This document shows positions 9,877 through 56,884 of a DNA stretch of 64,000 nucleotides, piece by piece. Each line of letters starts with the position of its first letter. The first letter of the stretch is position 1. A program made the translations under genes and the position numbers. Source of the stretch: Escherichia coli (GTDB taxonomy: Bacteria > Pseudomonadota > Gammaproteobacteria > Enterobacterales > Enterobacteriaceae); the NCBI RefSeq assembly GCF_003018255.1, contig NZ_CP027440.1. One strand, given 5' to 3'. Below the pieces are notes generated by a model, which had not been told where the DNA came from, searched no databases, and saw nothing but the letters and a program-made list of their open reading frames with translations.

Positions 9877-9987
9877 TGCTCTATAAACTCCGTACATCAC
9901 TCAATGCAAGGAACCAGGCTACCGGCTGGATGTACGACCGTGTTTACGGAGTGTTTAGCACTCCGGCCTGATTCTGAATTCTTTTTA

Positions 9988-21936: not shown

Positions 21937-22070
21937 ATGCCGGATGCGGCGTGAACGCCTTATCCTGCCTACCGTTCCAACACCAATTGTAGGCCTGATA
22001 AGACGCGGCAAGCGTCGCATCAGGCATCGTGCGCCGAGTGCCGGATGCGGTGTGAACGCCTTATCCGGCA
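21937..22070. repeat. BIME cluster: three REP elements
   Basis: gatgccggatgcggcgtgaacgccttatcc, ggcctgataagacgcggcaagcgtcgcatcaggc and tgccggatgcggtgtgaacgccttatccggca between convergent yphA and yphB. Confidence 0.8.
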
Positions 22071-39284: not shown

Positions 39285-39470
39285 ACAACAAAGCCGGGAA
39301 TTACCCGGCTTTGTTATGGAATAAGGCGGTGCCTAACTCGACGTTTCGCCCGATGGTTGATATAGCTACGCTGATATCAGAAGTTGGACGGCAGGCACCT
39401 TGTTGTGCGTCATTCGTATTTTATGTAGCACGTCCCGAAGGGGCTGACATAAGTCGGTGAATGAGCCACT
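39285..39470 (-). ncRNA. glmY: GlmY small RNA
   Basis: Minus-strand sequence from AGTGGCTCATTCACCGACTTATGTCAGCCCCTTCGGGACG... to a terminator hairpin (aacaaagccggg/cccggctttgtt) plus U-tract; about 185 nt; matches the GlmY sequence and its position upstream of glrK as I recall them. Confidence 0.8.
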
Positions 39471-48052: not shown

Positions 48053-48245
48053 TATTCTACCCTGGATGTAGAGTGTTAATTATTTTATAGAGAAACCTTA
48101 ACGCTATTATATTTATTTGATTGATGACATTAGCATAATTATTCACTAAGTTAATTTATATAGTATCTGCCCAGACACTTATTTATAGTTATTAAAGGCG
48201 CGTCCGACTGGTTCACCGGACGCACCTTAAGTACGTTTCCTTGTG

Positions 48246-48326
48246 TTATAAGAACAGAAGGATCAGCTGTAAAACAGCAATGATGATTTTGATAATCCGT
48301 TTAATCAGGTATCGGCAATCAGTCAT
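48246..48326 (-). CDS. shoB: type I toxin ShoB (26-aa hydrophobic peptide)
   Basis: Hand-translated minus-strand ORF: MTDCRYLIKRIIKIIIAVLQLILLFL; below the ORF-track size cutoff. Recognised as ShoB. Confidence 0.8.
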   Translation of the reverse strand: MTDCRYLIKRIIKIIIAVLQLILLFL

Positions 48327-48648
48327 TCGTTTTTCCTTAAACAAGGAATGCAGCCGTTCAGATTAGCCCTTACATCACCCCAAAACTGAACGTGCGAGTT
48401 ATTGGAATCGAGTGCTGCACTCCACACCAGAGCTTTGACGACACCACTCGTTTCAATGGGGGAATTCAGTGGCATGGTGTAAAGCACAGCAAAATTGCCA
48501 ATAACGAAACCGATTTTAATGTACTTATCAAAAAGCGGTCACGTTAATCTTTTTATCAATGTCGATTTCTTCGTAAAGGCTCGCGTTTTTTATGTCAGAG
48601 ATTGCAAGTTGCTTGTACAGGATAACGAAATTGATCCATAATCATTTC

Positions 48649-48726
48649 TGTTGGAATCGTGTGCTGCACAAAATTAAAGTTGTAAAGTGAAAACCCCCGT
48701 TCCTTACCAGTTCGGGGGTTTTACTT
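48649..48726 (+). ncRNA. ohsC: OhsC antitoxin sRNA (candidate boundaries)
   Basis: Plus-strand -10-like CATAAT (48637-48642) and terminator hairpin cccccg/cggggg plus TTTTACTT. Its 5' segment ttggaatcgtgtgctgcac (48651-48669) repeats ttggaatcgagtgctgcac (48402-48420) in the shoB 5' UTR region, giving 18 of 19 nt complementarity to the shoB mRNA. Ends inferred. Confidence 0.55.
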
Positions 48727-48747
48727 TATAAAGAGAACGGTATTTTT

Positions 48748-50610: not shown

Positions 50611-52223
<1,613 letters not shown>

Positions 52224-52226
52224 TCA

Positions 52227-52320
52227 GCACACGAAACAGACCTGATATACATGGCTCGGCTAACTGCTTCACTGCAGTTTCAGTTTACCGGTATATGGGG
52301 ACCAACGCTGTTTCGTGTGC
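52227..52320 (-). promoter_or_regulatory. rnc 5' leader long stem-loop (candidate RNase III autoregulatory site)
   Basis: gcacacgaaacag (52227-52239) and ctgtttcgtgtgc (52308-52320) are perfect inverted repeats about 70 nt apart in the rnc leader. Confidence 0.55.
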
Positions 52321-52419
52321 CGTGGCAACCTAGAGGTGCCAACCTTAAACTTCGGGGGAATATTCTATACACAACGACGGGGGATGTCGTTAGCCACGGG
52401 AGATTTATCTCATAAATAA

Positions 52420-53454: not shown

Positions 53455-55254
<1,800 letters not shown>

Positions 55255-55451
55255 AAAGTATGATTATTGTGCCTTAATGCCCGGTTAACCAGGCTTTTAG
55301 AAGTCGCTGTTCTGAGCTTAACGTCTGTATTAATAGAAACGCCGCATTCTACACTACAACATTGAGGCGAGGAAATGTTCATACCGTATGGATTGTGGTA
55401 TCTGGAAACGTCCTCGCATTTGTTATGCAAAATGCAACAAAGCCAGTGAAA

Positions 55452-55931
55452 TCACTGGCTCGCGTCTTCCGAAGATGTTTCAAATCGCACAAGGCCAGGC
55501 GGCAAGGCCACGCTTAAGATGATCGGTTGCCATTCAGACCGGGCAGCAAACTTTCGAGAGCAGCCACGTGCAATCAGGAATCCACCAACGCCACCGAGAA
55601 TCGCACCGCATAATGCTGCAATATCTGAAGCAAAGAGTAGCTGAAATAGTGAAGCGATGAGGAATAGTCCCACCAACGGCGACATATAAACCAGTAATGC
55701 GGAGCTAAGCAGGCTGCCTTCGGCGATTCCTAATTCTACTTTTTGCCCCGGCACTAACGGCTCATCACAGGGTACGACAATGGTATGCGTGGTTTGCGGG
55801 CCAAGTTTATTCAACACGCGGCTACCGCAACCGGCACGTGAAGCGCAGCTGCTGCATGAGGCTTTAACATCACAACTAACCAGCGCCTGCCCGTTTTCCC
55901 AGGAGACGACGGTAGCCCACTCTTTGATCAT
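55452..55931 (-). CDS. rseC: sigma-E regulatory protein RseC
   Basis: ORF track, 159 aa, MIKEWATVVSWENGQALV... Confidence 0.93.
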   Translation of the reverse strand: MIKEWATVVSWENGQALVSCDVKASCSSCASRAGCGSRVLNKLGPQTTHTIVVPCDEPLVPGQKVELGIAEGSLLSSALLVYMSPLVGLFLIASLFQLLFASDIAALCGAILGGVGGFLIARGCSRKFAARSEWQPIILSVALPPGLVRFETSSEDASQ

Positions 55932-56884
55932 TGCGCTGCCCCGAACTTAATATTCTCGGCAATGCGTTTCGCCGTTTGCGGCGGCAGTTCACCGACAATG
56001 GTGATTTCGGCGTTATCACGTACGCTTGTACTGACGGTTCTGCGCCCGGTGCGCAACATCTGATCGGTGCTCGATGGCGTAGCGCGGTTAACGTTTACCG
56101 AGAAGCTGAATAATCCGTCGGAATAGAGACGTGATTCGATAGGCATGTTGTCCATCGTCGGTAGCGGACGTCGACTACTGGAAACTTCGCTAAAACCCTG
56201 TGGCAACCAGGTTGGCGTCCAGCTGAATTTAGCTTTTTCACCTACAGGAACAGAAAGCAACGGCGGCAAATTTGCCTTCGCCAGCGTCTGCATACTGCTG
56301 CTGATATCCTGATTGACATTAAAAGCAATCACGCGAAATTGTTCCAGCGTTTCACCATCGCGATCAAGGAGATCAACCCGCATCGGTAATTTCGATTCGG
56401 TGTCCATCCACACGATGTAGCTGTAGCGTGTACCATCTCGGGCAACCACACGAATGACTTCGCAAAGACGATCAGCAATACGCGTGCGCCCGACGGAGAT
56501 AAAGTCGTAGTAAGGAGAAAGGCGTTTGAAATCGGTATAGATGAGCGATGGTAGAGAATCAACAATGTAATCGCCATTAAGCGTGAACGGTTCAAGTCCC
56601 GGTTCAAAATAGCTGATTTCATTGCCGCGCTGTACCACTTCCCGGCGCGGGCCATCCATTTGCAACAATTGTGCAAGAGGACGGTTATCGAGGCGTGCAT
56701 GTCGATAACGCAGAGACTCAACACCCTGTTTATTGATGCTGATGAATGACAGCTCGTAATTCAGTGACTGACTGGCCAGGTTCATCTGCTGTAATAACGC
56801 CCCGGACGCGGGAGTGGCCGAGGCGTTAGCAGAGAATAACAGGCTACCTGTCACTAATGACATGGCAAACCAAAGTTGCTTCAT
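55928..56884 (-). CDS. rseB: sigma-E regulatory protein RseB (periplasmic)
   Basis: ORF track, 318 aa, signal peptide MKQLWFAMSLVTGSLLFSANASA. Confidence 0.95.
   Translation of the reverse strand: MKQLWFAMSLVTGSLLFSANASATPASGALLQQMNLASQSLNYELSFISINKQGVESLRYRHARLDNRPLAQLLQMDGPRREVVQRGNEISYFEPGLEPFTLNGDYIVDSLPSLIYTDFKRLSPYYDFISVGRTRIADRLCEVIRVVARDGTRYSYIVWMDTESKLPMRVDLLDRDGETLEQFRVIAFNVNQDISSSMQTLAKANLPPLLSVPVGEKAKFSWTPTWLPQGFSEVSSSRRPLPTMDNMPIESRLYSDGLFSFSVNVNRATPSSTDQMLRTGRRTVSTSVRDNAEITIVGELPPQTAKRIAENIKFGAAQ

Follow-up and report, generated by a model that had tools for sequence, protein, structure and literature searches.

The 695-bp spacer between yfhL and acpS (positions 48053–48747 of the 64-kb stretch of Escherichia coli DNA analysed here, hereafter the window) is, to judge from its sequence, the known shoB–ohsC type I toxin–antitoxin locus of E. 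coli, which is already annotated. We are highly confident in a joint reading with three parts: this is the shoB–ohsC locus, the small RNA OhsC pairs with the shoB 5′ untranslated region (UTR), and the strain carries a minority, window-type haplotype in which cognate pairing has been kept. The annotation value of the identification is small, as the locus is a textbook one present in essentially all E. coli. What we add is a table of matched toxin-target and antitoxin alleles, a modest addition given that the variation itself was already known.

Placement and components of the locus

Of 5,426 complete E. coli genomes, 5,425 match a 1.5-kb query around the locus; the match is chromosomal in every case and as a rule single. 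The gene order yfhH, yfhL, shoB, acpS, pdxJ is annotated in the best-matching DNA (99.9% identity), and in the 99.9%-identical DNA of strain RM14723 the same position is annotated as ‘type I toxin-antitoxin system toxin ShoB’ (WP_000128775.1). K-12 MG1655 shows this gene order too, and both of its genes, shoB (b4687; 2700117–2700197, minus strand) and ohsC (b4608; 2700520–2700598, plus strand), lie in the yfhL–acpS interval. In the list of open reading frames (ORFs) of the window, and in the annotation of K-12 and 12 other genomes, shoB has yfhL and acpS as its neighbours and is encoded on the other strand from yfhL. A sequence-only reading of this DNA had placed the locus between these two genes, and the annotation of K-12 and RM14723 agrees. 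The two genes were earlier named ryfB and ryfC.

The spacer has a GC content of 0.378, compared with 0.524 for the window, and is the most AT-rich 695-nt stretch within it. The earlier description of an AT-rich island is thus correct about composition, but ‘island’ is too strong a word for an AT-rich intergenic spacer. The ORF list contains many short frames in this region. The features that we assign to the locus are as follows.

48190–48233, minus strand: putative shoB terminator hairpin, an inverted repeat with arms of about 13 bp and a poor U-tract (−24.3 kcal/mol).
48246–48326, minus strand: shoB coding sequence, 26 codons plus stop, from translation and from the RefSeq coding sequence annotated there in K-12 and in 99.9%-identical DNA.
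48327–48506, minus strand: shoB 5′ UTR of about 180 nt; the start near 48506 is deduced from the position of the −10 box and puts the AUG at mRNA nt 181.
48333–48338, minus strand: shoB Shine–Dalgarno (SD) sequence AAGGAA, 6 nt before the AUG, read from the sequence.
48343–48348, minus strand: predicted anti-SD sequence UUCCUU, which would pair with the SD as a 6-bp hairpin (RNAalifold consensus columns 159–174).
48402–48420, minus strand: OhsC target site, mRNA nt 87–105, 76–94 nt upstream of the AUG, with a window-type core at 48405–48412.
48513–48542, minus strand: shoB promoter from a promoter scan, −35 GTGACC (48542–48537), 18-nt spacer, −10 TAAAAT (48518–48513).
48613–48642, plus strand: ohsC promoter from a promoter scan, −35 TTGTAC (48613–48618), 18-nt spacer, −10 CATAAT (48637–48642).
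48650–48729, plus strand: ohsC small RNA antitoxin, about 80 nt, from Rfam RF02495 and K-12 b4608 mapped by alignment.
48651–48669, plus strand: OhsC 5′ pairing segment (nt 2–20), complementary to the shoB mRNA except for one U·U mismatch.
48681–48731, plus strand: OhsC terminator hairpin, with G/C core arms at 48690–48699 and 48713–48722 and a 13-nt loop, from an inverted repeat and a fold.

The shoB frame at 48246–48326 on the minus strand translates to MTDCRYLIKRIIKIIIAVLQLILLFL followed by a stop. The K-12 peptide is MTDCRYLIKRVIKIIIAVLQLILLFL; the two are identical at 25 of 26 residues, the sole change being I11 in the window for V11 in K-12. This comparison with b4687 confirms the 26-codon minus-strand ORF that had been recognized as ShoB from its letters, and alignment to the annotated K-12 shoB and ohsC supports the identity of both peptide and locus. 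Conservation of the peptide extends to E. albertii, E. whittamii and cryptic clades of Escherichia. Searches with the 26-residue peptide against Pfam and NCBIfam models gave no match, an absence that is uninformative about membership. For K-12, two papers that cite Fozo et al. 2008 report that the membrane is depolarised upon ShoB overproduction (PMC5397157, PMC5668327).

GTGACC and TAAAAT are the shoB promoter hexamers in Table 2 of PMC11264685, which surveyed over 2,000 E. coli genomes and also gives the ribosome-binding site AAGGAA as 100% conserved. The start near 48506 together with the 3′ hairpin at 48190–48233 predicts a shoB mRNA of 322 nt, in agreement with the full-length K-12 transcript of about 320 nt described in PMC5668327 and PMC5397157; according to the same papers, the sole translated shoB mRNA of K-12 is a 5′-processed form of about 280 nt. 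Two CpxR boxes have been proposed for the promoter region (PMC9600279). We also considered a 54-codon upstream ORF (GTG at 48487, TGA at 48323–48325, with an ATGA overlap with the shoB ATG) as a tisA-like leader or coupling ORF, and do not count it as coding: it is without an SD, the AUG lies inside a long stem, and the frame is broken in 5 of 85 surveyed loci, mostly by deletion or frameshift alleles.

The Rfam family ohsC_RNA (RF02495) matches 48650–48727 on the plus strand over model positions 1–77 of 77 (95.4 bits, gathering score 50, E = 3e-15), and the match was recovered again in a scan of the whole window. The K-12 ohsC annotation (2700520–2700598) aligns onto 48650–48729. An OhsC-like small RNA had been proposed on the plus strand at about 48649–48726; the Rfam score upholds its identity, and its ends have to be moved by 1–3 nt. 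The proposed −10 box CATAAT is found at 48637–48642 together with a −35 TTGTAC; it ends 7 nt upstream of 48650, and the promoter is divergent from that of shoB, about 140 bp away. Both hexamers are listed for ohsC in Table 2 of PMC11264685, TTGTAC being the minority −35 (33.1% of strains). According to PMC5668327, which draws on Fozo et al. 2008, OhsC represses ShoB synthesis in K-12, and OhsC overexpression abolishes ShoB toxicity.

The arms of the OhsC hairpin (AAAACCCCCG and CGGGGGTTTT) fold on either strand (−24.6 and −22.1 kcal/mol), both times with a U-rich tail, as expected from the terminator with T-tracts on both strands that had been described earlier. The terminator scan called no terminator in the region; with its 13-nt loop, this hairpin is outside the scan criteria. 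Seen from acpS, the hairpin lies on the minus strand 17 nt beyond the stop codon, and it may plausibly also end acpS transcripts.

Taken element by element, the K-12 locus has the same position, divergent arrangement, shoB promoter hexamers, ribosome-binding site and terminators as the window, and its OhsC aligns with that of the window over the full length in the same 19-nt pairing register. K-12 differs in having a perfect 19-mer, where the window has one U·U mismatch, and an ohsC −35 of TTGTAA in place of TTGTAC.

OhsC–shoB pairing and the two matched haplotypes

The 19-nt direct repeat with one mismatch that the sequence-only reading had picked out (TTGGAATCGAGTGCTGCAC at 48402–48420 and TTGGAATCGTGTGCTGCAC at 48651–48669) stands up well. 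With up to three mismatches allowed, these are the only two sites in the 64-kb window; the chance expectation is 0.07, and two or more matches occurred in none of 100 shuffles. OhsC as mapped (48650–48729) takes in the second copy, and OhsC and the shoB 5′ UTR are complementary at 18 of 19 positions in the window, the U·U mismatch placing 48660 opposite 48411, and at 19 of 19 in K-12. Besides this target 76–94 nt upstream of the AUG, we found no further OhsC–shoB complementarity within the window. The K-12 experiments, as summarised in PMC5668327 and PMC5397157, likewise have the 5′ end of OhsC carry the 19-nt complementarity.

Both copies of the repeat read TTGAGGGTGCATGCTGCAC in K-12 and TTGGAATCG(A/T)GTGCTGCAC in the window. 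The 8-nt pairing core, GAATCG(A/T)G in the window and AGGGTGCA in K-12, accordingly differs at seven of eight positions, and does so alike at the two copies. By these letters the strain is assigned to a minority ‘window-type’ haplotype in which both core copies are changed identically and cognate pairing appears to be kept. A 406-nt query covering the control region found 1,686 genomes at 95% identity or more, which are of the window type and include O157:H7 and NC101, and 3,658 genomes at 80–90%, which are of the K-12 type; the 81 that fall between roughly equal the 80 genomes with partial loci.

A 2024 conservation survey of type I systems noted variation at the pairing site and left the pairing itself unassessed. 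We counted combinations of target and antitoxin alleles with chimeric 80-nt queries (48 nt from the shoB side and 32 nt from the ohsC side), requiring for each piece an exact 28-mer across the core.

Target window type, OhsC window type: 1,684 genomes.
Target K-12 type, OhsC K-12 type, perfect match: 3,056 genomes.
Target K-12 type, OhsC K-12 type with one G (G·U wobble): 506 genomes.
Target window type, OhsC K-12 type: 0 genomes.
Target K-12 type, OhsC window type: 1 genome.

Target and antitoxin are thus matched in 5,246 of the 5,247 genomes scored out of 5,426 complete ones, with 3,562 in the two K-12-type classes combined. The one hybrid, found in strain Z1323CEC0015 (NZ_CP148423.1), arose by recombination, its crossover falling between 48598 and 48618. 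Metagenomes gave the same picture: among 69 contigs found with a 35-mer from the OhsC terminator, 66 were informative, and these fell into the three matched classes (29, 25 and 9 contigs) or were minor variants (3), with none of the 66 mixed. Where the two copies differ slightly in these contigs, the difference is always an A on the shoB side and a G on the ohsC side, which makes a G·U wobble.

Could the repeat and the small ORF be coincidental in an AT-rich spacer, with the hairpin at 48690–48722 merely the acpS terminator? The hairpin is indeed only 17 nt from the end of acpS, its minus-strand fold has a U-rich tail, and short ORFs are plentiful in the region. We nevertheless give this idea practically no credence and regard it as refuted by the full-length Rfam ohsC match far over threshold, by a repeat that is unique in the window and beyond chance, by the co-change of its two copies across alleles and species, by the conservation of the ShoB peptide in E. 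albertii, E. whittamii and cryptic clades, and by the K-12 experiments (summarised in PMC5668327 and PMC5397157).

The complementarity between OhsC and the shoB 5′ UTR that had been proposed from the window matches the annotated K-12 locus, and its 18 of 19 nt form a predicted duplex of −34.2 kcal/mol (9 + 9 bp). The K-12-type cognate duplex is predicted at −41.4 kcal/mol and the non-cognate duplexes at −19.9 to −22.8 kcal/mol, with window-type OhsC forming at most 11 contiguous pairs with a K-12-type target. These energies are for the local OhsC 5′ segment; RNAduplex on the full-length RNAs over-extended the pairing and gave meaningless values. Repression of zorO by OrzO needs 15 contiguous pairs, or 17 with one mismatch (PMC11264685), and by this yardstick, which is no more than an analogy, one would expect the window-type cognate pair to be functional and the cross pairs to fail.

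The weaker duplex of the window type raises the question of whether this allele is decaying or weakened, such that OhsC controls shoB poorly or the pair is silent. The U·U mismatch is fixed in the window type (1,684 genomes match sequences that carry it), the cognate duplex falls about 7 kcal/mol short of the K-12 one in stability, the OhsC 5′ hairpin has 4 bp where K-12 has 5, and the −35 is TTGTAC instead of TTGTAA, a change within the region of the proposed CpxR box CB2. Against decay, the ORF and the ribosome-binding site are intact, as are both −10 boxes and the −35 of shoB, and the allele is found unchanged in about 31% of E. coli genomes. Moreover, 9 + 9 bp at −34 kcal/mol still make a very stable duplex, and in OrzO–zorO a discontinuous pairing of 17 nt with one internal mismatch is enough for repression (PMC11264685). 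We consider decay quite improbable, and favour a window-type pair that remains matched.

Divergence, origin and deletions of the haplotypes

When one genome per species was scanned, shoB turned up in six records: those of E. albertii, E. whittamii and two cryptic-clade Escherichia species, and two that bear the title E. coli and act as representatives of separate species. E. fergusonii was not among the shoB matches of this one-genome-per-species scan. The core is K-12-like in all six records, so the window type is the derived or introduced state.

Divergence is concentrated between the two cores. Across 48396–48700, the window differs by 14–17% from each of the four K-type sequences with full coverage of the block, some of them from other species, whereas K-12 differs from the same four by 4–9%; the E. 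albertii and E. whittamii contigs span just part of the block and stand outside this four-sequence comparison. The window and K-12 are 15% diverged in the block, compared with 2.4–3.8% in yfhL, the body of shoB, acpS and pdxJ. That the roughly 280-bp block bounded by the cores is such an outlier would fit introgression or long-term maintenance better than drift; either introgression or accelerated change of 48396–48700 may account for it.

The scarcity of hybrids does not alone argue for selection: only 249 bp separate the two sites, and linkage could suffice. The presence of the same seven substitutions at both copies is a different matter, and calls for gene conversion between the direct repeats or for selection for compensation. 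Recombination between the direct repeats does occur: in strain SK6988 precisely the inter-repeat segment is gone, both promoters with it, and the 59-nt contiguous junction of this deletion occurs in at least 11 further genomes. We tentatively entertain, as an idea with the odds somewhat against it, that shoB–ohsC comprises two ‘specificity’ haplotypes, old and not cognate to one another, with the core replaced at both copies, most simply through gene conversion.

RNA folding, candidate mechanism and related systems

The full-length shoB mRNA folds with a predicted energy of −108.4 kcal/mol (z = −5.5 relative to shuffled controls). The consensus fold of 14 distinct Escherichia sequences contains a long 5′ hairpin (nt 2–109) in which both flanks of the target pair with the 5′ end of the mRNA itself and the variable core (columns 95–101) lies in an internal loop, and the SD AAGGAA is paired to the upstream UUCCUU. 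The SD/anti-SD pairs are invariant in the RNAalifold consensus, where covariation speaks neither for nor against them. No compensatory pairs were seen in the 14-sequence fold, because the sequences are too alike. A three-way co-variation, in which the 5′ end of the mRNA would track the core, was dropped; there is a single compatible varying pair, at columns 9/102 (G–C, A–U, G–U).

Truncating the 5′ end of the shoB mRNA in silico raised the accessibility of the target from 0.17 to about 0.31, with the start codon still not freed and no obvious ‘activated’ structure among the truncated forms. The folds fit the model established for tisB and zorO, in which the primary transcript is inert, 5′ processing activates it and the antitoxin binds a loading site further upstream; this fit is not proof, and a 5′-processing and standby model for shoB is not demonstrated by these computations.

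We propose the following course of events. An shoB mRNA of about 322 nt with a 5′ UTR of about 180 nt would be transcribed leftward from GTGACC-18-TAAAAT and would encode the 26-residue hydrophobic membrane peptide. In its full-length form, this mRNA would be inert, locked by the long 5′ hairpin (nt 2–109) and by the SD/anti-SD hairpin. The variable 8-nt core, lying in an internal loop, could nucleate the binding of OhsC, which would then block the standby or ribosome-loading region and trigger RNase III cleavage, much as IstR-1 does on tisB and OrzO on zorO.

In vivo, RNase III has been found to cleave at a site within the region of the shoB/OhsC duplex (PMC6212723), and OhsC might on this account act mainly through decay of the mRNA, by RNase III on the duplex, and not through a block of the standby site; that the target is not clearly single-stranded even after in silico 5′ truncation points the same way. 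Yet reviews list the mode of OhsC as inhibiting protein synthesis (PMC4147584), and in tisB–IstR-1 and zorO–OrzO cleavage accompanies the competition for the standby site and does not replace it (PMC5668327). We regard a mainly decay-based action as rather unlikely, though worth keeping in mind, and prefer a standby-region block with cleavage alongside.

By its sequence features, shoB–ohsC has the divergent antitoxin and 5′-UTR target that are the architecture of the tisB–istR-1, zorO–orzO and dinQ–agrB class. In tisB–istR-1, as in shoB–ohsC, a divergently encoded antitoxin uses its 5′ end to pair with some 20 nt in a long toxin 5′ UTR, at a distance from the ribosome-binding site, and tisB has an inert primary transcript, an active 5′-processed form and RNase III acting on the duplex (PMC4147584, PMC5668327), features that shoB–ohsC probably shares. 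The likeness is without sequence similarity, and tisB differs in being under LexA/SOS control and in having an upstream tisA ORF; the standby site is proven for tisB and just proposed for shoB.

For the alleles, the best precedent as specificity variants is zor–orz of O157:H7 (zorO–orzO and zorP–orzP), which has the same architecture as shoB–ohsC. Its pairing region is highly variable between the copies and sets specificity, OrzP not repressing zorO (PMC3919570, PMC11264685). The zor–orz variants are tandem paralogues in one genome, where cross-talk matters, whereas shoB–ohsC is single-copy and its alleles reside in different strains. The ibs–sib systems resemble shoB–ohsC in combining a small hydrophobic toxin, repression by a small RNA and cognate discrimination by short variable regions (PMC2943612); they differ in that the Sib RNAs are fully overlapping cis-antisense RNAs and multi-copy.

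The allele survey answers the question raised by the 2024 conservation study: pairing is preserved despite variation at the pairing site (5,246 of 5,247 genomes). Two matched alleles and one mismatched hybrid provide natural material with which to study how OhsC acts, what it is for and which rules govern the pairing, and strains with a deleted target (such as MFDS1001074), a deleted toxin or a repeat-to-repeat deletion extend that material. Should neither antitoxin repress the toxin of the other haplotype, recombination that separates a matched pair would leave the toxin de-repressed, and the locus would act as a small barrier to recombination.

Matched alleles of the pairing core

We found two matched E. 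coli alleles of the 8-nt core through which OhsC is predicted to pair with shoB mRNA. The relevant features of the window are:

48405-48412, pairing core, copy in the OhsC target of the shoB 5' UTR
48654-48661, pairing core, copy in the 5' pairing segment of OhsC
48396-48700, block bounded by the two cores
48613-48631, ohsC -35 region

Among the surveyed loci L002-L013, one allele reads GAATCG(A/T)G at both copies and the other AGGGTGC(A/G) at both copies. The same pattern holds across complete genomes, of which 1,684 have the GAATCG(A/T)G allele, 3,562 have the AGGGTGC(A/G) allele and only one is a hybrid. The window has the minority allele, in which a U.U mismatch is fixed. The sole natural hybrid that we found, strain Z1323CEC0015 (L020, NZ_CP148423.1), has a shoB target of the K-12 type, together with an ohsC promoter and an ohsC 5' end that are both of the window type. 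Its crossover falls between the shoB and ohsC promoters, at a position equivalent to window 48598-48618; its target–OhsC duplex is predicted to reach just about -21 kcal/mol.

Divergence between the cores

Over the block between the cores, the window differs by 14-17% from the four K-type sequences spanning it completely, a comparison set that includes other Escherichia species; the genes that flank the block differ from K-12 by about 3%. Either introgression or rapid divergence may account for this. The ohsC -35 region is among the parts that differ, reading TTGTACAGGATAACGAAAT in the window versus TTGTAAAAGATAAGTACAC in K-12, and a proposed CpxR box, CB2 (PMC9600279), has been reported to overlap it. 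Regulation of ohsC by CpxR may therefore not be the same in both haplotypes.

ShoB, its leader and other RNA elements

Upstream of shoB on the minus strand lies a 54-codon open reading frame (48323-48487) with a GTG start, an internal AUG at 48475 and a TGA stop that shares the sequence ATGA with the start codon of shoB. Of the 85 surveyed loci, 80 keep this frame open; in the other five, most of them alleles with a deletion or frameshift, it is broken. The frame probably does not encode a protein: it lacks a Shine–Dalgarno sequence, and the AUG lies inside a stem of the predicted structure. ShoB itself has isoleucine at codon 11 in the window (48294-48296, minus strand), where two bases of the codon have changed (GTC to ATT). 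This variant is rare, occurring in 2 of the 85 surveyed loci; among metagenome contigs of the window type, many have I22L instead.

A whole-window Rfam scan gave these other matches, all of them expected for this region of the E. coli chromosome:

2001-2645, IS128 and ryfA, the latter homologous to timP, a small-toxin mRNA of Salmonella
9878-9987, iscRS element
21992-22070, naRNA4
39323-39470, GlmY
52139-52353, rncO leader
55136-55967, AsrC

Deletion alleles

Strain SK6988 (L013, NZ_CP167126.1, 1473-1531) lacks precisely the sequence that separates the two 19-nt direct repeats, and with it both promoters. The junction left by this deletion occurs as a contiguous 59 nt in at least 11 other genomes (matches H105-H115), including M8 and O6:H16 ETEC strains, and genomes with the repeat-to-repeat deletion total at most about 80. 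Metagenome contig QZLQ01000519.1 (L050) has a deletion that fuses the shoB terminator to the promoter-proximal 5' UTR; the shoB coding sequence is gone and ohsC remains as an orphan antitoxin. Strain MFDS1001074 (L012, NZ_CP106929.1) has lost 13 nt of the shoB 5' UTR, equivalent to window 48405-48417, and with them most of the OhsC target; shoB, its promoter and ohsC are intact. This strain offers a natural test of whether the OhsC target site is required for the silencing of shoB or for its translation.
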